Shown here piece after piece: positions 3,389-42,966 of a DNA stretch of 44,242 nt (its first letter is position 1; each line of letters opens with the position of its first letter). This DNA comes from a candidate division WWE3 bacterium. Its GTDB lineage: Bacteria; Patescibacteriota; WWE3; UBA101185; UBA10185. The stretch is taken from positions 1 through 44,242 of the forward strand of contig CAMDGN010000002.1 in NCBI GenBank assembly GCA_945897985.1. The letters run 5' to 3'. Position numbers and translations under genes: made by a program. The notes under the pieces were generated by a model. The model worked only from the letters and a program-made list of their open reading frames with translations. It made no database searches and was not told where the DNA came from.

Positions 3389-4507
3389 ATGAAGATATCA
3401 ATAATTATTCCTACTTATAACGAAGAGGAAAACATCAAAACCCTGGTCCCTTTACTGGTTGCTAAATTTAAAGAATTTAAAAGTTATGATTTTTCCATAC
3501 TTTTTGTAGACGGTAATTCCAAAGATAAAACGGTAGTTGCAATAAAAAATTTCCAAAAAGAAATTAAAAATATATTTCTAATAGAAGAAGAGTCAAAAAC
3601 TGGTCTAGGAGGAGCTTATATTAAAGGTTACATCTATTCCATGAAAAAATTAAAAGCTGATTACGTTGTTGAAATGGATGCTGATCTGCAACATAGTCCC
3701 GATGACTTTCCAAAATTAATTTCCAAAATTAAAGAAGATTACGATTTAATTATTGGTTCCAGGTATGTTAAAGGGGGTTCTGTTCCTAAAGAGTGGGCAT
3801 TATATCGAAAATTTATTTCTTACTTTGGAAGTCTCTTTGCTAGAGTTTTGCTTAGAATTATGAAGGTAAAGGATTTTACTTCAGGATTTAGAGTAACCAA
3901 AGTTAAAGGAATTTTAGACCAGATTGATTTTACTCAAATCAAATCAAAAGGTTTTGCCTACAAGATGGATATGTTAGTTCGAATTTATGAAATGAAAGCA
4001 AGGATTGTGGAGGTTCCGATCGCGTTTGGGTTACGAGATAGGGGAACTTCCAAGATGGAGAAGAAAAACTTTAGAGATTCACTAGATGTTGTTTTATATT
4101 TTGCACTTCAGAGAAATAAAAATTTTATAAAATTCGTAATTGTTGGATTTGGTGGACTCTTTACCGATTTACTTATTTTTAACTTACTCTCTTTAAAGAT
4201 TGCTTCTTCGGCAGCTAGTTTAGTTTCAGGAATCTTCGCATTAACTTTTACATTCCTTATGAATAATTTTTGGTCCTTTAGCGAAAGACAAAAAAAGACT
4301 TTTAGAGAAATTATTCCAGTTTTTGTGATTTACGGAATTAGTTCTTATGTTCCGATTCTTTTAAGAAGTTACCTAATTCACTTTTTAGAATCTACCTATG
4401 GAGACACACTTGTTATTAGTAATATTGGTTTCTTAATCGGTGTTGTGTTTGGAATTGTTTGGAACTTTACAGTTTATAGTAAAATTATATGGAAGAAAAA
4501 ATCATGA
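3389..4507 (+). CDS. Polyprenyl-phosphate glycosyltransferase (GT2, Dpm1/GtrB/ArnC type) fused to a C-terminal GtrA-like membrane domain
   Basis: GT2 core motifs ISIIIPTYNEEENI, VEMDADLQHSPDD, GSRY. C-terminal 4-TM region FIKFVIVGFGGLFTDLLIFNLL...NNFWSF...WNFTVYSKIIW is typical of GtrA. Confidence 0.8.
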   Translation: MKISIIIPTYNEEENIKTLVPLLVAKFKEFKSYDFSILFVDGNSKDKTVVAIKNFQKEIKNIFLIEEESKTGLGGAYIKGYIYSMKKLKADYVVEMDADLQHSPDDFPKLISKIKEDYDLIIGSRYVKGGSVPKEWALYRKFISYFGSLFARVLLRIMKVKDFTSGFRVTKVKGILDQIDFTQIKSKGFAYKMDMLVRIYEMKARIVEVPIAFGLRDRGTSKMEKKNFRDSLDVVLYFALQRNKNFIKFVIVGFGGLFTDLLIFNLLSLKIASSAASLVSGIFALTFTFLMNNFWSFSERQKKTFREIIPVFVIYGISSYVPILLRSYLIHFLESTYGDTLVISNIGFLIGVVFGIVWNFTVYSKIIWKKKS

Positions 4508-25813: not shown

Positions 25814-26495
25814 TTCAAAAGATTTTTCTCAGGTTTATTATTCTGATCTTCTATCCGCTAAAAATATTTACAATAAAAATAAGTTAGTAACGATTGAAGA
25901 ATGCTTGAAACTTCTACCTGCAACCGGAAAGGTTCTAGATATAGGGTGTTTTAATGGGTTCTTTTTAGATATTATAAAAAATAAAGGTTATCAAACCTAC
26001 GGAATTGATGCCTCATCCGATGCAGTTAGTCTTTGTAATTCAAACGGTCACCATACAGTAGAAGCAAACTTAGAGGAAAAGATTCCTTTTGATGACAGTT
26101 TTTTTGATGCTATAACTGGTTTAGAAATTGTCGAGCATCTTGCTGACACCGATACCTTAATGAAAGAGATTAAAAGAGTATTAAAGCCAAACGGAATATT
26201 AATTTTTTCCACTCCAAATTTCTTTTCTTTAAGCAGAAGAATAATGACTTTGGTAGGAATTAATCCTTACTTTGAGGCTTCATTTAGTTTTCCTCCAAAA
26301 ATGGCGGGTCATCTTAGATTTTTCACTCATAACCTACTCAATGATTTTCTAAGCTACCATGATTTCAAAGTAAGATACACCGGCTCTGACGTTGTTAATT
26401 TTAATTCTAGTGGAACTTTATTTTCAACAAAGCTAGCTCAGTTGTTTCCTAAAATTGGACGGGGGATAGTTATTAGTGCTACAAATAGTAAATGA
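25806..26495 (+). CDS. Class I SAM-dependent methyltransferase
   Basis: Motif I VLDIGCFNGFF, FDAITGLEIVEHLAD, LKPNGILIFSTPN. 8-nt overlap with the radical SAM gene. Confidence 0.8.
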   Translation: MLNSKDFSQVYYSDLLSAKNIYNKNKLVTIEECLKLLPATGKVLDIGCFNGFFLDIIKNKGYQTYGIDASSDAVSLCNSNGHHTVEANLEEKIPFDDSFFDAITGLEIVEHLADTDTLMKEIKRVLKPNGILIFSTPNFFSLSRRIMTLVGINPYFEASFSFPPKMAGHLRFFTHNLLNDFLSYHDFKVRYTGSDVVNFNSSGTLFSTKLAQLFPKIGRGIVISATNSK

Positions 26496-27817
26496 AAGAC
26501 TTTCTAAAGGTATTTTTATTTAGTTTTATTGGTTTTTTCCTAGCCTGGTTAATTTTATTTAAATTAGGTATTAACTCGCTGCCCCTTCAATCTGAAGACG
26601 CAATACCTTCTATTTTCACTGGTATTTCAATTGTTAGAGAGGGAACTTTAAATCTCGATTCTTACTACCAAATGATGGTTAGTAAATATCCTCAACCTGA
26701 TGATTCAAATTTAACTCCTTTTTATTTAAGAAAAATAAATAATCACTATCTTTCGGCTTTTCCCATTATGAATACAATTCTTTCTTTGCCAATTTTTATC
26801 CTGTATGTTCCGTTTATAAACAGCGTTTCTTGGAACGATATTTATTTGCTTAGCCATCTGTCAGGAAGTTTTATATTATCCATCTCTTGTGTCGCCTTAT
26901 TCTACTTATTTAATCGCGTATTAAAGTCTTCAACTAGAAATTCCTATTTACTAACTGCAATTTACGCGCTCGCTACTATAAATCTACCTCTTATTTCTCA
27001 AGCCCTATGGCAACACGGTGCAGTTCAGTTTTTTACAATTTTAGGCATAATATTTTTTCTCAGGGAAAGATATTTACTTACTTTTATGTTTTTAGGTTTT
27101 GGAATCCTTTCAAGACCTACTGCAGGAATTGTTTTACTCGTTTTATTTATTTATCTGCTAGTTAATAAGAAAGTGAACCTTAAGTTAGTAATAAACTCAG
27201 CCATAGGATTTTTAATTCCAGTTTTATTCTTCTTAATCTATAACTATATTTATTACACAGATTTATCTAATCAAGGATATGCATCCCAATTAGGTAATTC
27301 CTGGCTTGGAAATTTTCCTGAAAGCTTAATTGGTATTTGGGTTTCACCTTCTAAAGGCTTACTTATTTACTCTCCAATTTTTATTTTTACCCTTATAGGT
27401 ATTTGGAAAGGTTACAAAAAAGATAATTTAGTCTCAATTTCATTCTGGATAATTCTTCTTCATACTTTAGTTCTTTCTAAATGGAAACACTGGTACGGAG
27501 GATACGGGTTTGGATATCGAATGATTTCAGATGTGATCCCTTTTTTCATAATACCAATTTGGTATTTGCTCGAAAATTATTACGATAAAGTAAAAAATGG
27601 AATCATAGCTACTTTTACTATTTCGCTTATAATCCAACTTTCTGGCTTGGTATTTTTTGACAGTATCTGGCATAACGCATACGATACTGGGTTTAAAAAT
27701 ACTTCTTGGCTTTGGTCTGTGAAAGATAGTGAGGCTGCTTTTAATGTGAGAAGGGTTTTAGTGAGATTTAATATTTTGGATAAAGCTTGTGAGAAATGCC
27801 TTCCTGGTAACCGATAG
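26492..27817 (+). CDS. Polytopic membrane protein, GT-C-like (candidate polyprenyl-phosphate-sugar-dependent transferase)
   Basis: 441 aa, at least 10 TM. Acidic first loop PLQSEDAIPSIF. No soluble domain. ATGA overlap with the methyltransferase gene. Family assignment is tentative. Confidence 0.45.
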   Translation: MKDFLKVFLFSFIGFFLAWLILFKLGINSLPLQSEDAIPSIFTGISIVREGTLNLDSYYQMMVSKYPQPDDSNLTPFYLRKINNHYLSAFPIMNTILSLPIFILYVPFINSVSWNDIYLLSHLSGSFILSISCVALFYLFNRVLKSSTRNSYLLTAIYALATINLPLISQALWQHGAVQFFTILGIIFFLRERYLLTFMFLGFGILSRPTAGIVLLVLFIYLLVNKKVNLKLVINSAIGFLIPVLFFLIYNYIYYTDLSNQGYASQLGNSWLGNFPESLIGIWVSPSKGLLIYSPIFIFTLIGIWKGYKKDNLVSISFWIILLHTLVLSKWKHWYGGYGFGYRMISDVIPFFIIPIWYLLENYYDKVKNGIIATFTISLIIQLSGLVFFDSIWHNAYDTGFKNTSWLWSVKDSEAAFNVRRVLVRFNILDKACEKCLPGNR

Positions 27818-27835: not shown

Positions 27836-29032
27836 ATGACTGAAAAGTATAATATTATTTGCCTTTCCAATCAACTTTGGGACTACCCAAATTGGACAAA
27901 TAAAAGACATGTGATGTATAGAATGGGTCAGTTAGGTCACCGAATCGTTTTTGTAGACCCTCCAATTAATTTTGGAAAAGTCCTCCTAACTCAATTTAAA
28001 AAAGGGTTTTTTACATTAGGGAGGTTATTTAAAGGTTACAAAGTTGCCGACAACGTTTTAATTTATACACCAATTAAATTCTTACCCTTCACGAAATTTT
28101 ATTCAGAATATTTTGCTAAGCAAATTAATAACCTAACTAAGAACTTTTTTAAAAACGAAAATAAGACCATTCTCTGGATTTATAATGTAGAAATAGAACA
28201 CCTGGAGAGTTATCTTGATGGAGTTAACAAAGACTATCTTCTATACGATTGTGTTGATTATTATGCAGGTTTTCCAAGATACGCAACCAAAGAGTCTAAG
28301 GATGTCTTTTTAAAAGTCGAGAAGGATCTTACTCAAAAGGCTGACTTAGTTTTCGCAACAGCTCCAGGTTTAGTTGAGAGACTTAAAAAATATAATTCAA
28401 GAACTTATTACACTCCCAACGTAGGTGATTTCGAGTTATTTCACGACATCAAGGAGAAATACAGAAACGATACTCCCTTAGAGTTAAAGAATGTTAAGCA
28501 TCCAATCGTTGGTTATATTGGGGCCCTTGATACATATAAATTTGATTACGAAATTCTAAAGGAAGCTGCAACTACCTATCCCGATTATAGTTTTGTAATT
28601 ATTGGCGATATAGCATTAAAAGATAGGGAAGGTACTCTTAAAGAATTAGGACTAGAGCAGATTTCAAACATTTATTTTCTTGGTTCCATTCCATTTATTA
28701 AGACTCCAAAATATATGGCTCAATTTGACGCTGAGTTAATTCCTTATGTATACAACGACTATACAGTTGGTGGCTGTTTCCCGGTTAAATTTTTTAATAC
28801 CATGTCCGCTGGCATCCCTTCGATAGTTACTGACTTGCCGGTATTTACTTTATATCGAGACATTACTTATATCTCTAAAGGAAAAGCAGATTTTGTTGCG
28901 AATATTAAAAAAGCCTTGGAAGAAGACAGTGAGCAGAAATATAAAGAGAGAGTCTCGGTTGCATCAGAAAATACCTGGGATTCAAAAGTTTCAGCTATGC
29001 TGCATCTAATTAAGAGTAATTTTAAATCATGA
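27836..29032 (+). CDS. GT-B fold glycosyltransferase (TuaH-like GT4 relative) lacking the EX7E glutamates
   Basis: N-terminus IICLSNQLWDYPNWTNKRHVMYRMGQLGHRIVFVDPP resembles TuaH-type enzymes. The C-terminal region GGCFPVKFFNTMSAGIPSIVT has N where the second Glu normally sits. Confidence 0.6.
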   Translation: MTEKYNIICLSNQLWDYPNWTNKRHVMYRMGQLGHRIVFVDPPINFGKVLLTQFKKGFFTLGRLFKGYKVADNVLIYTPIKFLPFTKFYSEYFAKQINNLTKNFFKNENKTILWIYNVEIEHLESYLDGVNKDYLLYDCVDYYAGFPRYATKESKDVFLKVEKDLTQKADLVFATAPGLVERLKKYNSRTYYTPNVGDFELFHDIKEKYRNDTPLELKNVKHPIVGYIGALDTYKFDYEILKEAATTYPDYSFVIIGDIALKDREGTLKELGLEQISNIYFLGSIPFIKTPKYMAQFDAELIPYVYNDYTVGGCFPVKFFNTMSAGIPSIVTDLPVFTLYRDITYISKGKADFVANIKKALEEDSEQKYKERVSVASENTWDSKVSAMLHLIKSNFKS

Positions 29033-30132
29033 AAATTTTATTCACTTTAAATTCTTCAAATTTTGGAGGAATGGAGCAGACAGTTTTAGATTTAGTTCAG
29101 GGCTTGGGTTTTGAGTTTGAGAAATTTGTTATTTGTCCTGAAGGTGATTTAACCCCTAATTTTAAAACTTTCTCAAAAGTAATTTTACATCCCAAAATAA
29201 AGAGCTTTGATCTAGCCTATATCAAATTTTTAATCAAGTTTATTAAAGAGAATGAAATTGAGGTGATTCATGCCAATGAACCAAGAATTGTGTTTCATTC
29301 AATGGTAGCTGGGTTTTTAGCTGGAGTTAGAGTTAGGATCTCTCATACTCACACGCCTATTTCTATGTGGCAAATTCCTTGGACTAAGAAAATCTTCAAT
29401 CTAGTTCTTAATTCATTAGTAATAAATTTTCTAAGTACCAAAGAGATAGCTTTATCTAATTCTATTAAAAAACAAAAAATCAAAGAATTAGCCCTACCAA
29501 GCAAATTAGTAGTAATTCCTAATTGTCTTGACCCCACTTTTATTACAAATATAGCTAATTATAAAAAACCTAGAAAAACAATATTAAGTAAATTGAAAAT
29601 TGAAGATAAGTTTGTGTTTCTTTATCTAAGTAGGCTAACTAAAGAAAAGAATCAGAAGTTATTAATTGAAGCTTTTTATTCTCTCTGTAAAACCAATAAC
29701 GACTCTATTCTTGTAATTGCAGGTAAAGGATCTGATTATGAAGTGCTTAAAAAAAGAATTTCGGCCTTAAACTTGGAAAAAAGAATTTTTATTTTAAACG
29801 AAGTTTCCGATGCTGATAAAATAGATTTATATATGTCTTCCGATTGCTTTGTATTTCCGACTTTAGCTGAAGGTTTTGGAATAACATTGATAGAGGCAAT
29901 GTTTTCATGCTATCCTGTGATTTCCTCAAATTTAGATGTTCTAAAGGAGGTTTCTGGAAATAAAGTTTTGTTTTTCAAAAACAATAATCAGAAATCACTT
30001 ACTTCAAAATTAAAGGAAGCACTAAAATTAAAAGAGGGGCCAAGCAAATTAGTTGAAAACAAAAAATTTGTATTAGCAAATTATTCAACGGAAAAATATA
30101 TAGAAAATTATGAAAGTTTGTATAAAAATTAA
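29029..30132 (+). CDS. GT4 glycosyltransferase
   Basis: SRLTKEKN; PTLAEGFGITLIEAMFSCYPVISS (EX7E). ATGA overlap upstream. Confidence 0.8.
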   Translation: MKILFTLNSSNFGGMEQTVLDLVQGLGFEFEKFVICPEGDLTPNFKTFSKVILHPKIKSFDLAYIKFLIKFIKENEIEVIHANEPRIVFHSMVAGFLAGVRVRISHTHTPISMWQIPWTKKIFNLVLNSLVINFLSTKEIALSNSIKKQKIKELALPSKLVVIPNCLDPTFITNIANYKKPRKTILSKLKIEDKFVFLYLSRLTKEKNQKLLIEAFYSLCKTNNDSILVIAGKGSDYEVLKKRISALNLEKRIFILNEVSDADKIDLYMSSDCFVFPTLAEGFGITLIEAMFSCYPVISSNLDVLKEVSGNKVLFFKNNNQKSLTSKLKEALKLKEGPSKLVENKKFVLANYSTEKYIENYESLYKN

Positions 30133-30135
30133 ATT

Positions 30136-31260
30136 ATGAAGATTCTTCTTTGGACAAGGTCCGATTGTTTTAAAGCCAAAGGTGGGGATATGGTTCAGAT
30201 TGAAAATACCTTTGTGGAGTTAAAGAAGTTGGGAATTGATGTTGTTATATCCGACAAGAATAATGTTAATTTAGATGAATTTGATATTGTTCATCTTTTC
30301 CAACTAGATTGGACTCCTGAAACTTATCTTCATGCTAAAAGAGCTAAAGCTATGGGTAAGAAGATTATTATTTCCCCAATTCATCACAGCGTTGATGAGG
30401 TTAAGAAATTTGATAATGAATATGTTTTTGGACTCAGAAGAATTTCAAAATTACTATTTGTTGATCAATTTCAAAGAGATACATTTAAAAACATTTACAG
30501 ATCTATTTTGGATAGAAATAAGGCTCTACCAACTCTTTATTCAGTCTTAATTGGGCTAAAGGAGATGAATAAGAGGGTTCTTGCGTGGGCTGATGTTGTT
30601 TTAGTACAAACCAAACTTGAGGCTCAGGAGCTGAAAAATACCTATAATATTGATTTCAAATGGGAAGTTATACCAAACGGCGTGACATCCTTTTATACCG
30701 AAAAATCTAAATTAAAAAATCTATTTGATTTCGAAGACTATATTATTTGTGTGGGAAGAATTGAACCTAGAAAAAATAACCTCAACATTATTGCAGCAGT
30801 TAAGCAGATTAGGAAAGAATTAAATAAGGATATTAAACTTGTTTTTGTTGGAAAGAAATCCAATAAACACAGAGAATACACCGCCCTATTTGATATAGAA
30901 GTTGCTAAAAATGACTGGATTCATTTCAAAGATTATCTTTCGTATAGCTCAATGCCTGCAGTTTATAAATTTGCTAAAGTTTGTGTATCTGCATCTTGGT
31001 TTGAAACTACAGGTTTAACTCTACTAGAAGCTTTATTTATGGGAACCAACGCAGTTTCTTCTTCCCCAAGAGCTGAGGAAATTCTTGGTGAATTCTCTTC
31101 ATATTGTAAACCAGAGAGCGTTGAGTCTATTGCTTCGGCTATTAAAACAGAGTATTTTAGAACTAGACCTAAACTTCCATCCAGTTTTAAAGAAGAGTAT
31201 ACCTGGGAAAATACGGCTAAGAAGACCTCATTAATATATAAGGCTTTATTAAATGATTGA
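30136..31260 (+). CDS. GT4 glycosyltransferase
   Basis: GRIEPRKN; SWFETTGLTLLEALFMGTNAVSS (EX7E). Confidence 0.75.
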   Translation: MKILLWTRSDCFKAKGGDMVQIENTFVELKKLGIDVVISDKNNVNLDEFDIVHLFQLDWTPETYLHAKRAKAMGKKIIISPIHHSVDEVKKFDNEYVFGLRRISKLLFVDQFQRDTFKNIYRSILDRNKALPTLYSVLIGLKEMNKRVLAWADVVLVQTKLEAQELKNTYNIDFKWEVIPNGVTSFYTEKSKLKNLFDFEDYIICVGRIEPRKNNLNIIAAVKQIRKELNKDIKLVFVGKKSNKHREYTALFDIEVAKNDWIHFKDYLSYSSMPAVYKFAKVCVSASWFETTGLTLLEALFMGTNAVSSSPRAEEILGEFSSYCKPESVESIASAIKTEYFRTRPKLPSSFKEEYTWENTAKKTSLIYKALLND

Positions 31261-34117
31261 AATATTACTTATTGCAGGAATTTTAATATTAACTCTAATT
31301 CTACTAAGATATAATTTTTATGCTTCTTTAATTCTTGCTCTAGTTTTATCAACCTTTTTACATAAAGAATTATTTTCAATTTACATTTGGGATATGCTTC
31401 CGATTAGAATTTTTATGGGAGCTTTTTTAATAAATTCGTTTTATGATTTTGTAAGATTTAACGGAATTTCTTTCAAATTTGTAAAATATCTTAAAGACCC
31501 CTTTATCTTATTAAATGTTTTATTGCTGATTTCTAAATTAGTTTCAATGGTAAACACACTAAACCTAACTGCATCACTTTCCCTGAATGCTTTTAATATT
31601 GCTATTACTGTTTTTGTAATTACTATTTATTTAAAACTTGATGCTGATCAAATTTTAGGCCTCTTTAAGAGTTACATTCCTCTAGCTGCCATCTTATCCT
31701 TTATTACATTTGTTCAGTTATTTTTCTATTTTAAATATTCCTTTTTATTTGGCGCAATTTTGAATATTGCTGGAAATACTGTTGATTTCCCTGCCTTCAG
31801 CTTGTCTAAAGAATTCTTCAACGACTCCTTAAAGTTAGTTGTAATGACTAGGGTTGGTAGTATTTTTTGGGACGTAAATCACTTTGGAGGCTTCTTGGCT
31901 GGGTTAGTTGTTCCATTACTTGCACTAGTTCTTACATTGAAGAAGAACAGAAATTTAAATATATTTTATTTTTTTATCCTTAATCTAACTTTATTTTTAA
32001 CCAACTCCAGAAGTGCCTGGATTCTTGCAGGAATTGCCTATCTAATATTCTTTGTTTTCGCGGTTTACAAAAAAATAGGTAAAAAGGGAATCGCTTATTC
32101 TCTAATTGGGTTTGGGTTATTTAGTTTGTTGCTGTTTTTTATGTATCAAGATAAGGATTCTTATTTTAGAGAAAAAGTAAGATCCTATTTTCACTACAGA
32201 CTTGATTCCTTTGACTCTCACTTTCTACTTCTTCAAGGTACTGTTGAGGTTTTTAATAAATTTCCACTTATCGGCGGCGGTACTGGTAGTTTTTTTGAGC
32301 ATTTCAAAACCACACCTTCTTCAAACGATTTTTTACGAAGGGATCCCGCTGGATTAAGTGTTAGGGTTCCGGCACATTCCATATGGGGAGAATCGTTATC
32401 CGAAGCCGGGGCTGTTGGTACTTCTATATTTGTATTAATTGTTTTATTAAATCTAGGGTATCTTCTATACTCCATAATACACAGCAAGGATAACTCTGAT
32501 TTCCTTTTACTCTCTGCCTTTTTTGGAACCATCATCGGATGGTTGATCTCAGGAATTTTTTATTCCTTTAATTCTGAGTTTTTTTACATCTTATTTTTCT
32601 TTCCAGTTATGTACTCTATTAAGAAGAATAATTTGATTCTTGAAGAAGTTTTGCTCTATTTTAAAAAGAAATCCTTTTACGCAACCTTAATTCTTTTTTC
32701 AATTTGTTTTTATATGGTTTTTATAAATATTGGGGCCAATAAATTGATAGCTTTTGATGAGGCAATCTACGCTAAAGTTGCCAAAAACATGTTTGAAACT
32801 GGTGATTTAATGACATTGACCTGGAAAGCTTATGATATTAATTGGTTTGAGAAGCCTTCCCTTTATTTTATTTTAACTTCCTTTGCTTATTCTCTATTTG
32901 GGGTTTCTGAATTTGCAGCTAGATTTGTGACTGCTTGTTTCTCTATTGTATGTTTAGCGTATGTCTATAAGCTTGGAAAAGAGCTAAAAGACTCCGTGAC
33001 TGGGTACTTTTCAGTCCTAGCTATGATTCTAAATGTTTCTTATTTGTATTACTCAAGAACCGCAATGCTGGACGTGATTCTTACAGCGTTTATTACTGCT
33101 TCTGTTTTCTATTTCTTAAAGGCTCAAAAAGGTAATAAGCTTTTAAATCTATCACTTTCCGGTTCAATGGTCGGGCTTGCAGTTATGACAAAGAGTATAG
33201 TTGGATTTTTACCGCTTGGAATTTACTTTTTGTATTACATTTATACTCTTATTAAAAAAGAAAATACTTACTTAGTTGCACTAAAAGAGCTTTCTTTACT
33301 GACAGGTGTATCTCTTTTGGTCTGCGCTCCTTGGCATTTTTATATGTGGTACTTACACGGAAGTGATTTTATTAATTCTTATTTTGGCTACCACTTATTT
33401 AAGCGATACACTTCAGCAATCGAGGATAAAGGCGGGCCTTGGTATTATTACTTTGTTGTTATTAGAAATACAATGCGATTATGGTTTTTAGTTTTGATTC
33501 CTTCACTTGCATACTTCATTTATAAAGCTTACAAAGAGAAGTTTTCTAATGAAAAGATTTTAATACTTATTTCTGCAGTAATTGTGATGTTATTTTTCTC
33601 AACCTCCTCTTCTAAACTTAAGTGGTATATTATGCCCATTTATCCATTTTTAGCTATAATTTGCGGCTATTTTGTCTCAGAAGCCAAGGAACTTTTATTT
33701 AAGAAAACTAAGTCACTTGTTATAGCTTTTGTAGCATCTTACTTATTTATTGTTGCCAATATATTTTACTTCTATACTCAAAGAGATATGGTCTACACTG
33801 GAGATCTGACTGGCAGGATTGTTACCTTAATTCAAAAAAATAATGAGTTGCCAAAAAAGGAAGTTGAGTACTCTTACTTTGATAAAACTGATTACCCTGT
33901 AGCACTTTATTACTCTGAGAAACCTTTTGAATTAGCTGACTTTTCTCCTTTAAAACAACATTTAACTAATCTTAAAAAGGATAATAATGGGGTGATTATG
34001 ACCAATACTTTCGTAACCAGTCAGAGCAGGTTCAGATCATTAAAGAATACTTTTCCTGAACTAACAATTATTTCTGAAAACAAAGACTACGTCTTAGGGT
34101 CTTTGACAGTTTACTAA
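31253..34117 (+). CDS. Fusion protein: N-terminal O-antigen polymerase/ligase-like domain (Wzy_C/WaaL family) plus C-terminal ArnT/PMT_2-like GT-C glycosyltransferase
   Basis: N-half (aa 1 to about 460): polytopic, LTNSRSAWILAGIAYLIFF, loop GGGTGSFFEHF...VPAHSIWGESLSEAGAVG (Wzy_C-type H..W/Y..L.E.G..G, His codon 32375-77). C-half (aa about 470-954): LIAFDEAIYAKVAKNMFETGDLMTLTW...WFEKPSLYF (Asp-Glu codons 32756-61), SRTAMLDVILT, MTKSIVGFLPLGIY. One uninterrupted 954-codon frame. Confidence 0.7.
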   Translation: MIEILLIAGILILTLILLRYNFYASLILALVLSTFLHKELFSIYIWDMLPIRIFMGAFLINSFYDFVRFNGISFKFVKYLKDPFILLNVLLLISKLVSMVNTLNLTASLSLNAFNIAITVFVITIYLKLDADQILGLFKSYIPLAAILSFITFVQLFFYFKYSFLFGAILNIAGNTVDFPAFSLSKEFFNDSLKLVVMTRVGSIFWDVNHFGGFLAGLVVPLLALVLTLKKNRNLNIFYFFILNLTLFLTNSRSAWILAGIAYLIFFVFAVYKKIGKKGIAYSLIGFGLFSLLLFFMYQDKDSYFREKVRSYFHYRLDSFDSHFLLLQGTVEVFNKFPLIGGGTGSFFEHFKTTPSSNDFLRRDPAGLSVRVPAHSIWGESLSEAGAVGTSIFVLIVLLNLGYLLYSIIHSKDNSDFLLLSAFFGTIIGWLISGIFYSFNSEFFYILFFFPVMYSIKKNNLILEEVLLYFKKKSFYATLILFSICFYMVFINIGANKLIAFDEAIYAKVAKNMFETGDLMTLTWKAYDINWFEKPSLYFILTSFAYSLFGVSEFAARFVTACFSIVCLAYVYKLGKELKDSVTGYFSVLAMILNVSYLYYSRTAMLDVILTAFITASVFYFLKAQKGNKLLNLSLSGSMVGLAVMTKSIVGFLPLGIYFLYYIYTLIKKENTYLVALKELSLLTGVSLLVCAPWHFYMWYLHGSDFINSYFGYHLFKRYTSAIEDKGGPWYYYFVVIRNTMRLWFLVLIPSLAYFIYKAYKEKFSNEKILILISAVIVMLFFSTSSSKLKWYIMPIYPFLAIICGYFVSEAKELLFKKTKSLVIAFVASYLFIVANIFYFYTQRDMVYTGDLTGRIVTLIQKNNELPKKEVEYSYFDKTDYPVALYYSEKPFELADFSPLKQHLTNLKKDNNGVIMTNTFVTSQSRFRSLKNTFPELTIISENKDYVLGSLTVY

Positions 34118-34139
34118 TTTAAAAATATTAATTAAAATT

Positions 34140-35333
34140 TTATCTTTGAGATTTATTTAAAATATAAAGAAATGTTACAGCAGTAAGTATTATTGAAGAA
34201 ATTAAATCAGCTGCAGCTAAGCCTGTAATCCCGAAATTTATAGTTAGGAAGAGGCTTAAAATAACGAAGAGAACTAATTTTCCTAGTGTAAAGCTAAGTA
34301 AAGTCTTAGATTTTTCTTCGATAAAGAAGTAGTTATCAAGGAATTTATGGATTGAAGAAAAGGCCTGAGCAAAAAGTAAGATTGAGAATATTAAGATAGA
34401 CTCATTAAATTTATCACCAAAAAATAAATTAAAAAAGAATGGTGAAATTAGGGACCCGATTGTAGCGAGAATAAGAACAAAAATTCCTAATATTAAAGAT
34501 TCCTTTAAATTGTAACTTAAATCATCCCTTTTTCTTTTTGCATTAGAAGTCAGTATTACTGTGTAAATGGAGTAAGAGACTACTGAAAATACATTTGAAA
34601 GTTTTGAAGCAAGGGAGAAGGTCCCAAGGTCACTTAAAGTACTAATTATTTTTAGGATTTGGTTTGAAATCGTATTCCAGCTTTCGTTTATGGTTTGACT
34701 AATACCAGCCAAAAAGAATCTAGATAAGAATTTATTAATTTTAAAGTTCAACTTAAATGTCTTTAATTCGTTTAATTTAAGGGGTAGCAATATTATTGAT
34801 GCTCCTATAGATAACGAAAAGATTTGAAAAGCTGTTTCAAGGTTAACATTGAAATGGTTGGTTAGGATTAAAGCTCCAAAAATACCTTTGATTAAAGCTG
34901 GGAAGAAGTTTAAAAGCGAGGCCAAGACAAATCTCTCATCCTTTTGGAATAAAGCAAACAGAAGGTAGTTGATACCGTAGAAAAATAACCCAAGGATAAA
35001 ATTAGTAAAAATCGAAAGGTTTTCGATTTCATTTAGGTAGTAAAGGATTAATATTGAAAGAAAAGCTGTAAAAACAAAGGCTACAATTTTAAAATTTATG
35101 AGTTCATTTAAATAGCTTTTACCTTTTCCGATATACTCTGATACAAAAGTTGAGTTTGATCCAAAATCGATAATTTTAGAAATTGAAACTAATAGGAGAG
35201 TAAGTAAGCTATAAATTCCAAATTCTTCCTTTGGAAGTTTGATAGCAACAGCTAAGAAGAGTAAAACACCTAAACCTAGGTTAATTAGGTTAGTGAGGGA
35301 TACTAGTGAGATGTTTTTAGCTGATTGCTTCAT
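34140..35333 (-). CDS. MOP-superfamily polysaccharide flippase (Wzx-like), third copy, the only minus-strand gene in the locus
   Basis: 397 aa, about 12 TM. N-terminus NISLVSLTNLINLGLGVLLFLAVAIKLPKEEFGIYSL. Confidence 0.6.
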   Translation of the reverse strand: MKQSAKNISLVSLTNLINLGLGVLLFLAVAIKLPKEEFGIYSLLTLLLVSISKIIDFGSNSTFVSEYIGKGKSYLNELINFKIVAFVFTAFLSILILYYLNEIENLSIFTNFILGLFFYGINYLLFALFQKDERFVLASLLNFFPALIKGIFGALILTNHFNVNLETAFQIFSLSIGASIILLPLKLNELKTFKLNFKINKFLSRFFLAGISQTINESWNTISNQILKIISTLSDLGTFSLASKLSNVFSVVSYSIYTVILTSNAKRKRDDLSYNLKESLILGIFVLILATIGSLISPFFFNLFFGDKFNESILIFSILLFAQAFSSIHKFLDNYFFIEEKSKTLLSFTLGKLVLFVILSLFLTINFGITGLAAADLISSIILTAVTFLYILNKSQR

Positions 35334-35367: not shown

Positions 35368-36477
35368 ATGGAAAATATCAAGAAAATTGGAATTGATTGC
35401 AGAATGATTAAAGAGTCTGGGATTGGAAGATACATATATAACTTAATTGAAAACTTGGCAAAAACTGATACCCACAATGAGTACTATTTATTTTGCTATA
35501 ACAAAGAGAGTTTTGAAATTTCACTGCCTTCAAACTTCCATCTAATCTCAGCTCCGATTAAATGGCATACCATTTCCGAACAAACCCGTCTACTAAAAAT
35601 TATCAACTCTTATAGCTTAGACTTGTATCATTCTCCGCATCCAAATATGCCGTTTTTTTATTCAGGTAAGTTTGTGATTACAATTCATGATTTAACAATG
35701 CTTAAAGAAATGACAGGAAGAGCTTCAACCTATTTCTATCCTTTTTATTATTTCAAATGGTTAGTTTTTAAAATCATGCTTTCAAAGGTTATCAGGACTT
35801 CTGAAAAAATTATAACTGTTTCGGAATTCGTGAAAAAAGAAATTATTAATACATTCAACATATCTGAATCTAAGGTTGCGGTAATTTATAATGGGGTACC
35901 TGAAAAAATCCAAAAAAAGACCCAGTTAGAGGTGAGGGATACTTTATATAAATTTAAAATTAATAAACCTTTTCTATTTTATGTGGGAAATGCCTATCCT
36001 CATAAAAATCTTGAGAGACTTATTCTTGCTTTCACCTTATTTAATGTTGGAAATAAATTTGAGCTCATTCTTGGAGGTAAAGAAGATTTTTTCTATAAAA
36101 GATTAAAACTAGAAAACAAGAATCTGTCCAGCTTGCGATTTCTAGGAGAGTTAACTGACGAAGAAATTTCGGCTTTATATTCAGGTTGTCAGGCCTTTGT
36201 ATACCCAAGCATTAGCGAAGGCTTTGGAATTCAAATTATTGAAGCCATTAAATGTGAAGCCCGAATACTCTGTTCGGATAACACTTCTTTTCCTGAAATC
36301 GCTGGGGATTATGCGTACTATTTTAATCCTTTTGATGTTGAGGATATAAAAAATTGCTTGTCTGAAAATATAAATTCCTCGTACAAAGATAAAATAGATA
36401 AGTCCCTTGCTAGACTCAAAAACTTTAGTTGGAAATTGTCTGCCCAACAACATCATGAACTCTTCAAGAAAATATAA
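35368..36477 (+). CDS. GT4 glycosyltransferase
   Basis: GNAYPHKN; PSISEGFGIQIIEAIKCEARILCS (EX7E). Confidence 0.8.
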   Translation: MENIKKIGIDCRMIKESGIGRYIYNLIENLAKTDTHNEYYLFCYNKESFEISLPSNFHLISAPIKWHTISEQTRLLKIINSYSLDLYHSPHPNMPFFYSGKFVITIHDLTMLKEMTGRASTYFYPFYYFKWLVFKIMLSKVIRTSEKIITVSEFVKKEIINTFNISESKVAVIYNGVPEKIQKKTQLEVRDTLYKFKINKPFLFYVGNAYPHKNLERLILAFTLFNVGNKFELILGGKEDFFYKRLKLENKNLSSLRFLGELTDEEISALYSGCQAFVYPSISEGFGIQIIEAIKCEARILCSDNTSFPEIAGDYAYYFNPFDVEDIKNCLSENINSSYKDKIDKSLARLKNFSWKLSAQQHHELFKKI

Positions 36478-37573
36478 AATAGCCATTGTCCACGATGACT
36501 TTATTCAATTCGGTGGTGCGGAAAATCTTATTTTTGATATTTCAAAAAAATTAAATTTAAACTCAGATTTTGAGATAGTTATTTACTCCTCATTGATTTC
36601 GACTAAATGGAAGAAAAAGCTAAGTAATGCGTCTCTTAAGTATCAAGAGAGTTTTTTAAGTTATATACCCTTTTGCTATTTAATTTCAAAATTATTTTTT
36701 ATTCCTAATTTGTTTTACTTGGCTTTTCAAAGTTTTAATTTCGATAAGTTTGACGTTGTGTTGTCTTCCTCTACTAGGTTTGGTCATAGTGTAATTACAA
36801 AGCCCTCAACTTACCATATTTCATACCTTAATTCGCCCTCAAAAATGTTATGGAGTACTTGGGAATATTTTAAAAGTAAGGATAAGTTGTATCGATTGGT
36901 TTATATTTTCTTAAACAATAAAAGAGTAATTGATCAGGTTACCCAAAACTACAGTGATTTAATTATCTCAAATTCTAAAAATATTAGACGTAAGATTACA
37001 AAATTTTATCGAAGGAAATCCTTAGTTTTATACCCGTACATTGAATCAGGTTTTATGTTAAAACCTAAAGAAAATTATTATGTTTTGGTCTCGAGATTAG
37101 TTTCATGGAAAAGAATTGATTATGTGATTGAAGCTTTTAATGAATTAGGTGAGAGGTTAGTTATTATTGGTTCAGGTCCCCAACAATCCCATTTAAAGAA
37201 GATCTCTAATTCAAACATTGAATTTACAGGTTTTATAGGTGAAGCCGCGAAGCGGGAATTGATCTCTAAATCAACAGCTATGATTTTTCCTCAAAACGAG
37301 GATTTCGGTTTATCTATTGTTGAGAGCCTGTGTCTTGGCACCCCAATTTTATATTTTAATAAAGGTGGTGCCAAAGAGATTCTTAATGAATCCCTTGGAA
37401 TACCCTTTGAAGAACAGAATGCAAAATCCCTTATCTCAGCGATAAATAAACACAAATTTAGGTCTTACAATATAGAGGAACTGCTTCTTTCTGGATCTAA
37501 ATATAATTCAGATAATTTTATAGGTTTCCTCACTAAGCTGATTAATACAAGGCTTGAGATGAAAAAAAGTTAA
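36455..37573 (+). CDS. GT4 glycosyltransferase
   Basis: MNSSRKYKIAIVHDDFIQFGGAENL; SRLVSWKR; PQNEDFGLSIVESLCLGTPILYF (EX7E). The track start 36407 would add 16 residues overlapping the previous gene by 71 nt; ATG 36455 gives a 23-nt overlap. Confidence 0.75.
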   Translation: MNSSRKYKIAIVHDDFIQFGGAENLIFDISKKLNLNSDFEIVIYSSLISTKWKKKLSNASLKYQESFLSYIPFCYLISKLFFIPNLFYLAFQSFNFDKFDVVLSSSTRFGHSVITKPSTYHISYLNSPSKMLWSTWEYFKSKDKLYRLVYIFLNNKRVIDQVTQNYSDLIISNSKNIRRKITKFYRRKSLVLYPYIESGFMLKPKENYYVLVSRLVSWKRIDYVIEAFNELGERLVIIGSGPQQSHLKKISNSNIEFTGFIGEAAKRELISKSTAMIFPQNEDFGLSIVESLCLGTPILYFNKGGAKEILNESLGIPFEEQNAKSLISAINKHKFRSYNIEELLLSGSKYNSDNFIGFLTKLINTRLEMKKS

Positions 37574-38233: not shown

Positions 38234-40282
38234 ATGGATAAAGATAAAAGTATAAAGTTTGGAGGTAATTCTGAATCAGAAAATTTTAAAAATAAATTTA
38301 CTGAGAAGTTAGAATCTAAAGCTGCTCAAATTAAAGAAAAATTTAATTTAAATAGTTCTAACAATAAAATGAATATTGGATCAAATATGGGAAAAGTAGT
38401 TTCATCTGGAAATTTAAATAAAGTTACAAAAATTTTAGTCCCTGTTTTTGGGGGTATTCTTGTTGTATTGGTTCTGTTATTTTTTGTAGTAATAAATCCT
38501 ATTCTAAGTTTAAGAGACTCCGTTACTAAATTACAGAAGACAGTTAACCAAACAAGTTTTTCTCTAATTAATGATAGAGATCTTGTAGCTTACGAATCTA
38601 ACTTAGCAAAACTTGAAAGTGATTTGAACAACTTAAGATCTGAAAGAGACAGCAAAATTGGCCACTTAAAGAATTTTCCTTATATAAAGAACTTCTACGG
38701 TGATATTGATATCTTCATTAACACAGGAATCAAGCTTGTCGCTGCAGGAAAAGAAGTTAGACCTGTAATTGAGCCTTTTGCAGATGCTATGGGAATTAAA
38801 GTTTCCAAAGACCAGCAAGTAAATAAGATTGGATTTGCGGATGCTGTTGCAACCTGGATTAGTGTAATGCCAAAAGTTGCTCAAAATCTTGATCCAATCA
38901 TTCTTAAACTTGATGAAGCTGGAAAAGAGTTAAATAAGATTGATGCTCAGAAGTACAATTTTAATTTTGGCTTTTATAAAAACGATTTAAGACCTGGAAT
39001 TTTATTTGCTCAAAAATCTTTAGCTGACGTACGAACCTATGGTCCTGATGCCAAAGAGGCTCTTCTAATTTTCCCTGGAATTTTAGGAGTAGGTACAGGT
39101 GAGCAAAGATATATGATTATTATGCAGAATAATGCTGAAATCAGAGCAACTGGTGGTTTCTGGACTAACTTTGCAACCTTCAAGGTTAAAAACGCACTTT
39201 TAACATCTGATTTTACGTCTAAAGACATGTATTCAATTGATATTGCTCTTGACGCTGTTGATAAGTACGTAACATTTCCGACTGCTCCCGCAGCTTATAA
39301 CAAGTTCTTAAAAGTCGAGAGATTGTACGCAAGAGATACCAATATTTCTCCTGATTTCCCGTCTGCTATTACTCAGTTTAATGTTTACTACAACATGGCT
39401 CAAAGAGTTAATCCAGTTGATTTCAAGCCGGTAGATGGTTATATCGGAATTAACACCGAGGTTGTTAAAGAATTTATCGGAATCACAGGTCCTGTAAATG
39501 TTAATGGTGTAATTTTTGACAAGAATAACGTTGTTCTTGAGCTTGAAAAAATTGCCTCACTCTCCTTAGCTCAACAAGCAAATAGAAAGAAAGTTTTAGG
39601 GGACTTAATGGAAGCTATGCTTAAAAATGTGTTTGAATCTGATTCCTTCTTATGGCCACAACTTATCAACAAAGGTGTTGATTTGATGAATAGAAAACAG
39701 GTTATAATTTACTTTAACGACGTAAATTCGCAAAAACTTGTTGAAAAATATAACTACGGTGGAAGAATTGTTGAACAAACCCCAGGAAGTGACTATGCTT
39801 TCTTCGTTTCAACCAACCTTGGTGGTGATAAAACTAACTTGTTTATTAAGAAAGAGCTTACTCAGACAACAACCCAGGAGAATGGTAAGTTGCTTCGAAC
39901 TGTCAAAGTTAGATATACCTACCCGCAACCACCTTCTGAGTACAACGACTTTGTGAAGAGATACCAAGACTGGTATAGACTTTATGTTCCTGAGGATGCT
40001 GAATTTGTATCACTTACAGGAAATGAAGACAGTACTTTATTCCAAGGTAAAGAAAGAGGTAAAGTTTATTTTGGAGGATTTATGACATTAGTACCTAACG
40101 AAACTAAAGAAGTTGAATTCAAGTATTATCTTCCTGCATCTTATGTTAAGAATAAGCAATACAACTTATACATTCAAAAGCAATCCGGTGTTAACGAAGA
40201 AAAATACAACTTTAATGTTTTCGGTACAACTTCAACTAAGGTAATTGATACTGATTACAACTTAAATGTTACTTCTAACTAA
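38234..40282 (+). CDS. DUF4012-family protein: N-terminal membrane anchor, coiled coil, large extracytoplasmic domain; function unknown
   Basis: 682 aa. Lys/Asn-rich N-terminus, one TM (ILVPVFGGILVVLVLLFFVVI), coiled coil (aa about 95-140), then YMIIMQNNAEIRATGGFWTNFATF, which I recognise as the DUF4012 signature (QNNAE.R.TGGF). Confidence 0.7.
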   Translation: MDKDKSIKFGGNSESENFKNKFTEKLESKAAQIKEKFNLNSSNNKMNIGSNMGKVVSSGNLNKVTKILVPVFGGILVVLVLLFFVVINPILSLRDSVTKLQKTVNQTSFSLINDRDLVAYESNLAKLESDLNNLRSERDSKIGHLKNFPYIKNFYGDIDIFINTGIKLVAAGKEVRPVIEPFADAMGIKVSKDQQVNKIGFADAVATWISVMPKVAQNLDPIILKLDEAGKELNKIDAQKYNFNFGFYKNDLRPGILFAQKSLADVRTYGPDAKEALLIFPGILGVGTGEQRYMIIMQNNAEIRATGGFWTNFATFKVKNALLTSDFTSKDMYSIDIALDAVDKYVTFPTAPAAYNKFLKVERLYARDTNISPDFPSAITQFNVYYNMAQRVNPVDFKPVDGYIGINTEVVKEFIGITGPVNVNGVIFDKNNVVLELEKIASLSLAQQANRKKVLGDLMEAMLKNVFESDSFLWPQLINKGVDLMNRKQVIIYFNDVNSQKLVEKYNYGGRIVEQTPGSDYAFFVSTNLGGDKTNLFIKKELTQTTTQENGKLLRTVKVRYTYPQPPSEYNDFVKRYQDWYRLYVPEDAEFVSLTGNEDSTLFQGKERGKVYFGGFMTLVPNETKEVEFKYYLPASYVKNKQYNLYIQKQSGVNEEKYNFNVFGTTSTKVIDTDYNLNVTSN

Positions 40283-40995: not shown

Positions 40996-41022
40996 GTTTA
41001 GTCTCATTTTTCGTTCATTTTT

Positions 41023-41031
41023 TGTTAAAAT
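41023..41031 (+). promoter_or_regulatory. Putative extended -10 box (TGTTAAAAT), 6 nt upstream of glyQS ATG 41038
   Basis: TGTTAAAAT-ataagt-ATG. No SD in the 42-nt gap. Confidence 0.5.
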
Positions 41032-41037
41032 ATAAGT

Positions 41038-42420: not shown

Positions 42421-42491
42421 TTAATCGAAATAATTTTTACTCATTTATTACTTTTTAACCGCTATATAAGCCTTTTCGGGTTATTTCCGTG

Positions 42492-42520
42492 TTGACTCCT
42501 AAGGTCAAATGGTGGAATAT
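42492..42520 (+). promoter_or_regulatory. Possible Pmra-like promoter (-35 TTGACT 42492-42497; weak -10 GAATAT 42515-42520, 17-nt spacer)
   Basis: Near-consensus -35 hexamer. The -10 is poor (3/6) and overlaps the first repeat unit. Confidence 0.3.
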
Positions 42521-42550
42521 GGTTAGTAAGGGTGAGAAATGGTGAATTAT
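42511..42550 (+). promoter_or_regulatory. Four in-phase direct repeats (10-bp period) upstream of mraZ; candidate MraZ operator
   Basis: GGTGGAATAT / GGTTAGTAAG / GGTGAGAAAT / GGTGAATTAT start at 42511, 42521, 42531 and 42541 exactly. The last unit doubles as an SD-like GGTGA for mraZ. Confidence 0.5.
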
Positions 42551-42959: not shown

Positions 42960-42966
42960 AGTTTCT

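Follow-up and report, generated by a model that had tools for sequence, protein, structure and literature searches.

The 954-residue protein encoded at positions 31253 to 34117 of the window, by which we mean the whole 44,242-nucleotide stretch of DNA analyzed here, unites in one chain a WaaL-like module bearing a Wzy_C domain and an ArnT-like GT-C glycosyltransferase. The fusion gene is genuine and belongs to a WWE3-class Patescibacterium from fresh water. We think it reasonably likely that the product is a bifunctional extracytoplasmic enzyme, one half of which adds a lipid-donated sugar, with the other performing en-bloc transfer of a lipid-PP-linked glycan to an acceptor other than LPS; the fusion probably completes a conserved surface glycan and links it to its acceptor. 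Its parts belong to two well-known enzyme families, and many copies are already in database pipelines, some bearing the JGI label "ArnT-like glycosyltransferase/O-antigen ligase." The fusion as such is uncharacterized, and our literature searches, which found no characterized enzyme of this combined architecture, agree on this point with the initial annotation of the region.

The ATG-started open reading frame has no internal stops. Logan contigs from four independent lake or freshwater metagenome runs span the junction between the halves with substitutions only over positions 31000 to 34300, save for a sole indel at 34137, past the stop codon of the fusion. Furthermore, a sister cluster with 83% identity supplies 954-residue fusion copies from more than 12 independent assemblies. 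The claim that a single uninterrupted frame holds two polytopic domains is thus upheld, the junction being free of stops and frameshifts and both domains scoring above their Pfam gathering thresholds. The motifs, too, had been placed correctly, namely, AHSIWGESLSEAGAVG at residues 374 to 389, NSRSAW at 251 to 256, FDE at 501 to 503, and WFEKPSLYF at 531 to 539. The features of the gene and its surroundings are collected in the table.

Table. Features of the fusion gene and of related genes in the window (aa, residues of the fusion protein)
Feature	Positions	Strand	Basis or distribution
Fusion gene, 954 aa	31253..34117 (stop codon 34115-34117)	+	full length in best 120 homologs; indel-free in independent contigs
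N-half, aa 1-459, 12-TM WaaL-like/Wzy_C module, both termini predicted cytoplasmic	31253..32629	+	AF2 helices, Foldseek, loop charge
Wzy_C match, aa 239-394, with the large external loop at aa 300-376	31967..32434	+	Pfam HMM
NSRSAW, aa 251-256; R253 = E. coli WaaL R215 (LTQTRAT vs LTNSRSA)	32003..32020	+	R253 invariant, 120/120
Ligase motif H375-S-x9-G386-xx-G389 = WaaL H[NSQ]X9GXX[GTY] from E. coli H338	32375..32419	+	alignment
Cytoplasmic linker, aa 460-473, NLILEEVLLYFKKK, short helix 463-472	32630..32671	+	AF2, alignment, loop charge
C-half membrane module, aa 474-842, ArnT-like GT-C (PMT_2/PMT)	32672..33778	+	HMM, ArnT sequence and fold matches
FDE, first external loop; D502/E503 = ArnT D55/E56, Pmt1 D77/E78, catalytic acid pair	32753..32761	+	invariant
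WFEKPSLYF; E533/K534 = ArnT E84/K85, metal and carrier-phosphate contact	32843..32869	+	invariant
C-terminal external alpha/beta domain, aa 843-954, placed as ArnT periplasmic domain	33779..34114	+	AF2 secondary structure
U441, first module gene, divergent GT-C, invariant Q-S-E-D motif after TM1	26492..27817	+	syntenic, 49 loci
Three GT4 genes: 27836-29032, 29029-30132, 30136-31260	27836..31260	+	conserved, 61-70/80 loci
Wzx-type flippase (Polysacc_synt), convergent with fusion	34140..35333	-	conserved, 59 loci
Two more GT4 genes: 35368-36477, 36407-37573	35368..37573	+	conserved, 53-54 loci
Initiating phosphoglycosyl transferase (PGT; Bac_transf), 209 aa, 178 bits	37601..38230	+	conserved, 50 loci
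DUF4012 protein, one TM helix + ~600-aa external domain	38234..40282	+	Pfam match
GT2 fused to GtrA/DPMS transmembrane domain	3389..4507	+	outside conserved module; non-syntenic in other loci

The N-terminal half had been assigned to the Wzy/WaaL type. It could have missed the corresponding profiles; instead, it matches Wzy_C (PF04932) with 50.4 bits against a gathering score of 31.7, a threshold that the relatives tested likewise exceed, and scanning the two halves separately left the HMM scores unchanged. The fold points the same way: for the model of this half alone, the sole strong Foldseek match is WaaL (7tpg_B; E 1.7e-5, TM-target 0.67, with 0.65 to 0.67 the range for this match), followed by SEDS proteins at 0.41 to 0.48. 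Sequence comparisons count on the other side: profile searches of the PDB did not recover WaaL, and hhalign to E. coli WaaL failed. The motif HSIWGESLSEAGAVG (residues 375 to 389) has H375, G386, and G389 invariant and S or T at position 376; 49 of the 120 family members carry the strict published motif, and 71 have at its second position Thr, which lies outside the published [NSQ]. The catalytic triad of E. coli WaaL comprises R215, R288, and H338 (PMC3643930). Only two-thirds of it is unambiguous in the fusion, because the R288 position aligns with the invariant H323, the invariant R316 lying 7 residues upstream.

The C-terminal half, previously described as an ArnT/PMT-type GT-C, is recognized as such by PMT_2 (PF13231; residues 534 to 694, 65.1 bits against a gathering score of 26.1) and PMT (PF02366; residues 480 to 689, 58.1 against 22.7). 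It matches the ArnT structure 5ezm by sequence (E 6.5e-27 with the single sequence and 3.6e-43 with the family profile), and its best fold match is ArnT 5f15 (E 3.8e-15, TM-target 0.68), PMT structures being far weaker Foldseek matches. Besides the acidic pair and the E-K pair, D607 (ArnT D158), K647 (K203), R718 (R270), and Y792 (Y345) are invariant, the mapping being taken from sequence alignment with a SEQRES offset of +3 and the residue roles in ArnT and Pmt1 from PMC7801869. This half is not an ArnT ortholog, since it scores 98.5 bits with the ArnT equivalog NF009784, whose cutoff is 567. We also considered a GT39 protein O-mannosyltransferase proper and rejected it, given the much weaker PMT fold matches and the absence of the MIR family from the Pfam matches to the fusion at an E value of ≤1.

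The AF2 model of the whole chain (pLDDT 91.4, pTM 0.89) suggests, through its pTM, that the two bundles of about 470 residues have a defined mutual arrangement; hence, the halves may well pack against each other. Conserved polar residues map to loops predicted to be external, and K and R abound in the short loops predicted to be internal, the linker among them. Both active sites are therefore predicted to lie next to each other on the outside of the cell, with the connection made on the cytoplasmic side. The linker itself, of 13 to 23 residues across the family, is poorly conserved (21% pairwise identity).

Far from being rare, this architecture is what an entire class of Patescibacteria normally carries. 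The survey of related genomes that the initial annotation had called for recovered it in at least 96 species-representative genomes, one of them a closed WWE3 genome, and each of the best 120 homologs is 908 to 1,023 residues long with both domains present. None of the 14 mapped catalytic or carrier-binding residues varies among the 120 sequences, and the two halves show similar conservation (47% pairwise identity for the N-half and 44% for the C-half), the least conserved folded part being the C-terminal domain (residues 843 to 954; 37%); judged by these residues, both halves look active. In one other lineage, the halves are adjacent separate genes with a 55-nucleotide spacer (6 contigs). Some lineages have a second Wzy_C paralog adjoining the fusion. 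The databases also contain a few short entries (430 to 570 residues), which either bear a partial flag or fall into clusters of full-length proteins; the copy on one small contig (L083) is fragmented.

The fusion lies in a conserved module of about 14 kb beside a cell division cluster, and dozens of genomes repeat the order U441-GT4x3-fusion-Wzx-GT4x2-PGT-DUF4012, with proteins about 40% identical. The three preceding genes are confirmed as GT4, as had been stated; they overlap or abut, the third overlapping the start of the fusion by 8 nucleotides, and are thus probably cotranslated with it. U441 itself has no Pfam match, but 6 of 28 members of its family match PMT_2 (best E 4e-9), and the family aligns with residues 562 to 664 of the fusion at an hhalign probability of 88%. 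The DUF4012 protein has no sequence relative in the PDB and belongs to a family enriched in CPR bacteria (PMC6744442). No obvious gene for an acceptor protein was seen within the module, and the window has no LPS core genes.

CPR bacteria are reported to have no outer membrane (PMC6744442), and the WWE3 lineage, whose genomes fall below 1 Mb, is reported to be free of LPS. The lipid A-core, the canonical acceptor of WaaL and ArnT, is therefore absent, and we take the N-half to be WaaL-like without being a strict O-antigen ligase. By the same token, the earlier placement of both activities at the outer membrane face stands as regards their extracytoplasmic location, but the outer face in question is that of the cytoplasmic membrane.

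Taking the conserved neighbors together, we propose that the small PGT begins a glycan on polyprenyl phosphate, which would be extended in the cytoplasm by the five GT4 enzymes and flipped by Wzx. On the external side, single sugars from polyprenyl-phosphate-sugar donors might be added to the glycan or its acceptor by the GT-C half and by U441, itself a separate GT-C. En-bloc transfer of the polyprenyl-PP-linked glycan by the WaaL-like half would follow, the final acceptor being the wall, a glycolipid, or a surface protein. We infer the donors, the order of steps, ligation over polymerization, and the acceptor. Coupling of the two activities on a single substrate is plausible, with support from the recurrent gene order and from the split-gene lineage, which keeps the halves adjacent. 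A candidate polyprenyl-phosphate-sugar synthase that might feed the GT-C enzymes is the GT2-GtrA/DPMS protein; its position outside the conserved module counts against this explanation.

One possibility, which we regard as rather improbable, is that the N-half is a Wzy-type polymerase that builds a surface polysaccharide from flipped polyprenyl-PP repeat units, with the GT-C half adding a side-branch sugar to each unit or to the growing chain, a mode of addition to lipid-linked polymers that is well documented in Gtr, GacL, and YfhO-type systems. The Wzy_C domain is common to polymerases and ligases (PMC3643930), no other Wzy_C-type protein occurs in the conserved module, and the second paralog beside the fusion in some lineages would permit one polymerase and one ligase; further, DUF4012, which could here serve as a chain length or export auxiliary, also occurs within a Bifidobacterium CPS/EPS locus (PMC6744442). 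Nevertheless, a ligase is favored because the catalytic His motif is invariant and WaaL is the best fold match, because Wzz/PCP, BY-kinase, and LCP have no Pfam match among the window ORFs of at least 100 residues, and because the lineage keeps the same set of genes in the module, in contrast to the hypervariable loci typical of repeat-unit polymers. The fold search weighs little against a polymerase, since Wzy polymerases have this domain and fold too and solved structures of them are scarce.

The layout of PGT, glycosyltransferases, flippase, and transferase resembles that of general glycosylation loci, which would suit a prime-and-ligate form of protein O-glycosylation. Here, a PMT-like GT-C half would place a first sugar on a Ser or Thr residue of a surface protein such as a pilin, an S-layer protein, or a wall protein, and the WaaL-like half, requiring a sugar-hydroxyl acceptor as WaaL does, would next ligate the flipped oligosaccharide onto this primer. 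We consider this unlikely. It accords with the above-threshold PMT model and the correspondence of the D-E pair to Pmt1 D77/E78, with the inclusion among Wzy_C enzymes of protein O-oligosaccharyltransferases that share the WaaL Arg/His residues (PMC3643930), with a WaaL proposed to glycosylate protein besides LPS (bioRxiv 10.1101/2022.10.31.514599), and with the wealth of type IV pilins in CPR bacteria, which are without an outer membrane (PMC6744442). However, the Pfam scan gave no match to PglL_A (PF15864) at an E value of ≤1 and none to MIR, a feature of true PMTs; the C-half is much nearer ArnT than PMTs in both sequence and fold; the module has no obvious acceptor protein gene; and the two-step logic is speculative. 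Last, that one of the halves serves as a catalytically dead scaffold or that the ORF is an artefact of assembly or annotation joining two genes, as the few short entries and the fragmented L083 copy might hint, is effectively refuted by the four runs with no indels, the 120 full-length homologs with every key residue, the copy in a closed genome, and the partial or coclustering nature of the short entries.

WaaL-like and ArnT-like enzymes represent the two main bacterial routes by which lipid-carrier sugars reach envelope molecules outside the membrane, and they have mostly been studied within LPS biology. The occurrence of a fused pair with intact catalytic residues in a strictly conserved module implies that WWE3 bacteria use it to build a core glycoconjugate of their envelope, and it suggests coupling of the two reactions through a shared substrate or acceptor. 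The fusion offers a natural stoichiometric complex for studying the coordination of en-bloc and single-sugar transfer, a handle on the surface chemistry of uncultivated CPR bacteria, with its bearing on host attachment and phage recognition, and a candidate oligosaccharyltransferase scaffold for glycoengineering. There is a slim chance that it represents a new class of envelope glycoconjugate synthase replacing LPS-type ligation in monoderm, ultrasmall CPR bacteria, a rigid one-polypeptide prime-and-ligate machine whose ArnT/PMT-like half would install a primer sugar on a surface protein or lipid and whose WaaL-like half would ligate the flipped oligosaccharide onto it; if true, this machine would define the surface glycan that is conserved throughout the WWE3 class and that might serve in contact with a host.

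Several parallels are offered by known systems. WaaL (Cupriavidus metallidurans 7TPG; E. coli K-12) shares with the N-half the Wzy_C domain and 12-helix fold (TM-target 0.67), a large external loop preceding the helix that begins at the catalytic His, R215 and H338 (R253 and H375) with the H-x-x9-G-xx-G pattern, and, presumably, a polyprenyl-PP-linked glycan as the substrate. The fusion differs from it in a host without the lipid A-core acceptor, in the His at the R288 position with an Arg 7 residues upstream, in an N-half sequence too divergent for profile detection, and in its covalent attachment to a GT-C enzyme. ArnT (GT83; 5EZM/5F15) has all its mapped residues (D55/E56, E84/K85, D158-K203, R270, and Y345) conserved in the C-half, along with the C-terminal external domain and a presumed polyprenyl-phosphate-monosaccharide donor; however, the fusion host has no lipid A, and the C-half has fewer helices after the Y345 equivalent and sits behind a WaaL-like module. 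Eukaryotic PMTs differ by the MIR domain, which the fusion does not have. Wzy polymerases share with the N-half the Wzy_C superfamily, a Wzx-dependent context, and the side of the membrane, but the fusion has the invariant ligase-type His motif, no Wzz/PCP nearby, and a conserved rather than hypervariable locus. The PglL/PilO/WsaB-type enzymes, likewise with Wzy_C and the shared Arg/His, perform the en-bloc transfer from lipid-PP to a non-LPS acceptor that a monoderm would need; the fusion differs in having neither the PglL_A motif nor an adjacent pilin-like acceptor gene in view, and we know of no fusion partner in any of these enzymes. Finally, in the GtrA/GtrB/Gtr*, CsbB/YfhO, GacI/GacL, and GT39 systems, a GT-C enzyme adds one extracytoplasmic sugar, drawing on a polyprenyl-P-sugar that a GT2 enzyme has made, and the window, too, carries a GT2-GtrA/DPMS gene; their GT-C enzymes stand alone, whereas that of the fusion is tied covalently to an en-bloc transferase.

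Both enzymes that the initial annotation had read from this locus, a Wzy/WaaL-type polymerase or ligase and an ArnT/PMT-type GT-C glycosyltransferase, are carried by one uninterrupted forward-strand frame (31253..34117, ATG start, 954 aa). The motifs lie where that reading had placed them, with NSRSAW (aa 251-256) and AHSIWGESLSEAGAVG (aa 374-389) in the N-half and FDE (aa 501-503, nt 32753-32761) and WFEKPSLYF (aa 531-539) in the C-half. Pfam profiles bear out both assignments: Wzy_C is matched at aa 239-394 (50.4 bits versus a gathering score of 31.7), PMT_2 at aa 534-694 (65.1 versus 26.1), and PMT at aa 480-689 (58.1 versus 22.7), the scores being unchanged when the halves are scanned separately. 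The NCBIfam ArnT equivalog covers aa 473-850 at 98.5 bits, far under its 567-bit cut-off.

Three independent lines, namely, metagenome contigs, full-length homologs, and genomes, rule out an assembly artefact. The junction is free of the frameshift or missed stop that might have hidden two genes: across positions 31000-34300, Logan contigs drawn from four metagenome runs of lake or fresh water depart from the window by substitutions alone inside the ORF, and their sole indel falls at 34137, past the stop codon. One contig differs from the window at 45 positions and another at 74; hence, they represent different strains. Among 5.8 billion proteins, a search picked out 251 homologs, and the best 120 of these are all 908-1023 aa long and all combine Wzy_C with PMT_2, so that the architecture holds among relatives. 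Copies of 954 aa from more than 12 separate assemblies fall in an 83%-identical cluster, and at least 96 species-representative genomes carry the gene, among them the closed 878-kb genome CP006914; almost all bear a WWE3 or Patescibacteria label. The fusion is real, conserved, and uncharacterised. A promoter and terminator scan around the junction found nothing, promoter-like sites being fewer than in shuffled sequences, and a search for RNA runs that might show expression turned up none.

Relatives of the N-half alone are few: when 1.84 billion representatives were searched exhaustively, just 153 reached E <= 1e-3, and 33 reached E <= 1e-30. As the closest of these are mostly of fusion length, the N-half constitutes a small, clade-restricted Wzy_C subfamily. 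Most short relatives are fragments rather than split versions (P0121 is flagged as partial, and P0122 groups with a fusion of 1057 aa). On a small ENA contig (L083:529-2578), a 452-aa Wzy_C ORF overlaps a 233/239-aa PMT fragment, an arrangement that seems better explained by a frameshift or pseudogenisation than by a clean split. The sole convincing two-gene form among the short relatives comes from one lineage (L081:4001-6932, also L082; a 285-kb JGI contig, with 6 contigs in all), where a 460-aa Wzy_C gene and a 497-aa PMT_2 gene follow one another, separated by a spacer of 55 nt that includes a stop codon. The former shares 29% identity with the N-half over its full length (E 3e-46) and the latter 35% with the C-half (E 7e-67); the L081 spacer also holds a GC-rich hairpin-like sequence, and the pair has GT4 genes and another Wzy_C gene as neighbours. 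This pattern, adjacent genes in one lineage and a fusion in another, is the classic sign of functional partners. In some WWE3 loci, a 700-746-aa protein lies directly behind the fusion and aligns to its aa 29-583 (hhalign probability 100%), which identifies it as a second copy of the fusion whose GT-C half is truncated but retains "YDE" and "EK." The 4.2-kb matches at four such loci (L060, L080, L065, and L069) are accordingly neither insertions nor splits, each being a fusion with its downstream paralog. One of them, L065 (JAWABG010000068.1), is a 7.6-kb contig labelled "Candidatus Woesearchaeota archaeon" with a WWE3-type fusion and paralog, and is probably a mis-binned bacterial contig.

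An AlphaFold2 model of the whole chain, built with the 120-sequence alignment, has a mean pLDDT of 91.4 and a pTM of 0.89. In Foldseek searches of the PDB, the C-half best matches ArnT (5f15, E 3.8e-15, TM-target 0.68), followed by ALG12, STT3/PglB, AftA, and Pmt4, and the N-half matches the WaaL ligase (7tpg_B). When the N-half is modelled alone (pLDDT 87.9), WaaL is its only strong match (E 1.7e-5, TM-target 0.67), with the SEDS polymerases FtsW and RodA far behind (TM-target 0.41-0.48). At the sequence level, ArnT is the only PDB relative (E 6.5e-27 with the single sequence, 3.6e-43 with the family profile); the family profile did not find WaaL among PDB sequences, and hhalign of the N-half family against Escherichia coli WaaL gave a meaningless 1% match. 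Hence, the WaaL mapping rests on fold and local motifs. Judged from the model's helices and loop charge, the N-half is predicted to have 12 TM helices with both ends inside, and a K-rich, cytoplasmic linker of 14 residues (aa 460-473; 13-23 aa across the family and only 21% conserved) leads to a C-half that opens with an in-to-out TM helix and an external loop bearing D502/E503. The C-half has about 11-13 TM helices, an approximate count; helix 704-720, being amphipathic (mean hydropathy -0.5), is probably juxtamembrane rather than TM, and the chain's terminal alpha/beta domain (aa 843-954) is predicted to be external. This layout would require no adaptor helix and is predicted to set both active sites on the outer face. 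As the pTM is computed over the whole chain, we infer that the two bundles hold a defined mutual arrangement.

The active-site residues that could be mapped in each half are retained. In the C-half, they were mapped by alignment to ArnT (5ezm, SEQRES offset +3; see the table). In ArnT, D55/E56 is the active-site acidic pair, E84/K85 contact the metal and carrier phosphate, D158-K203 form a salt bridge for sugar or acceptor, and Y345 lies near the phosphate (PMC7801869). In the N-half, the reference residues are R215, R288, and H338 of E. coli, which are common to WaaL and PglL (PMC3643930). Direct comparison sets "LTQTR215AT" of K-12 WaaL against "LTNSR253SA" of the fusion and "H338NEIIEAGSLKGLMG" against "H375SIWGESLSEAGAVG," while the R288 position aligns with an invariant H323, seven residues upstream of which is an invariant R316. 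H375, G386, and G389 are invariant in the family (n=120), position 376 is Ser in 49/120 and Thr in 71/120, and all 14 mapped residues are kept in 120/120 sequences. With mean pairwise identities about equal (47% for the N-half, 44% for the C-half; n=120), neither half looks degenerate in sequence.

A single long envelope-glycan island takes up about 3.4-40.3 kb of the window. When all window proteins were compared with 80 related loci by tblastn, only the part from 26492 onward proved conserved, in the fixed order U441 (a 441-aa protein)-GT4-GT4-GT4-fusion-Wzx (opposite strand)-GT4-GT4-Bac_transf PGT-DUF4012-RecO-aminoacyl-tRNA synthetase-MraZ-MraW; the placement of the fusion directly after three GT4 genes, noted at the outset, thus recurs in related loci. 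U441 (26492-27817), polytopic and always first in the module, has no Pfam match itself. Of 28 family members, however, 6 match PMT_2 (best E 4e-9) versus 2 matching EpsG; the family aligns to the fusion's GT-C core (hhalign probability 88%) and has an invariant Q-S-E-D-T-x-P motif just after TM1. These alignments indicate that U441 is a divergent GT-C, which leaves the N-half as the only Wzy_C-type protein of the conserved module. DUF4012, without a sequence relative in the PDB, is a CPR-enriched family that also occurs in a CPS/EPS locus of Bifidobacterium (PMC6744442). The TTG-start ORF of the fifth GT4 (36407-37573) shares 71 nt with the GT4 gene before it, and its true start probably lies further downstream. 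RecO, a class II aminoacyl-tRNA synthetase, and the start of the division/cell-wall cluster (MraZ and MraW) abut the module at 40282-44116, an adjacency kept in many WWE3 genomes.

The upstream two-thirds of the island (3389-26495) is not conserved in related genomes and is unusually rich in GT-C-type membrane proteins (see the table). A plausible role for its GT2-GtrA/DPMS protein is that of a synthase supplying polyprenyl-phosphate-sugar to the GT-C enzymes. A 435-aa protein at 20017-21324, with about 11 predicted TM helices and Pfam-negative even at E <= 1, could be a divergent flippase or Wzy-like polymerase of this variable region. At 24200-26495, a B12-binding radical-SAM enzyme (537 aa; in only 1/80 loci) is followed by a class I methyltransferase (in 9/80), a pair that suggests C-methylated or otherwise unusual sugars. 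Genes for a CAP/SCP-domain secreted protein and an AdoMet decarboxylase (2250-3137 and 1778-2185, reverse strand), unrelated to the fusion, immediately precede the island.

Features of the variable region, downstream paralogs, and fusion residues with ArnT equivalents
Feature	Position	ArnT equivalent (5ezm alignment)
GT2-GtrA/DPMS protein	3389-4507	
Unannotated 526-aa protein, "SAEWGDSYR" after TM1	10145-11725	
DUF2079	12416-14506	
Second flippase	14503-15978	
LPG_synthase_TM protein	15978-16877	
Stand-alone PMT_2, two	16867-18345, 18426-20027	
Paralog of the fusion	L060:13056-15167; L080:12969-15188; L065:3005-5218; L069:8506-10746	
Fusion acidic pair	D502/E503	D55/E56
Fusion residues	E533/K534	E84/K85
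Fusion residue	D607	D158
Fusion residue	K647	K203
Fusion residue	R718	R270
Fusion residue	Y792	Y345

Taken together, the residue mapping and the predicted structure show a single polypeptide with two apparently intact, outward-facing, lipid-carrier-dependent transferase modules, set within a conserved PGT/GT4/Wzx pathway. We propose that the PGT and the five GT4 enzymes would make a polyprenyl-PP-oligosaccharide, which Wzx would flip. Outside, the GT-C half and U441 might add single sugars from polyprenyl-P-sugar donors, the GT-C half either decorating the glycan or priming an acceptor, and the WaaL-like half would transfer the glycan en bloc to an acceptor that could not be lipid A-core. The outer membrane is reported absent from CPR bacteria (PMC6744442). 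That the N-half is instead a Wzy-type polymerase seems to us less likely, since it has the invariant His motif and WaaL alone as a strong fold match, co-polymerase and LCP genes are absent (no Wzz/PCP, BY-kinase, or LCP family member was found among the window ORFs of 100 aa or longer), and the gene content of the module is fixed. On these same grounds, a ligase or oligosaccharyltransferase is favoured.

Literature searches (Wzy_C with PMT_2; O-antigen ligase in Patescibacteria, CPR, or WWE3; ligase-GT-C/ArnT fusion) found no description of a Wzy_C-GT-C fusion, in line with the initial annotation, which knew of no characterised enzyme with this architecture. Hundreds of database copies are annotated "glycosyltransferase family 39 protein," and some bear the JGI label "ArnT-like glycosyltransferase/O-antigen ligase." The N-half shares with WaaL the 12-TM, both-ends-inside layout and probably works like WaaL or the O-OTases, but, given the lack of an LPS context, it is not a strict O-antigen ligase, and it differs from PglL in being without the PglL_A motif. 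The C-half resembles ArnT, including the in-to-out TM helix followed by the external D-E loop, yet it is no ArnT ortholog, nor, with the MIR domain absent, is it a MIR-bearing PMT. The fusion is, therefore, a new covalent joining of two known kinds of enzyme.
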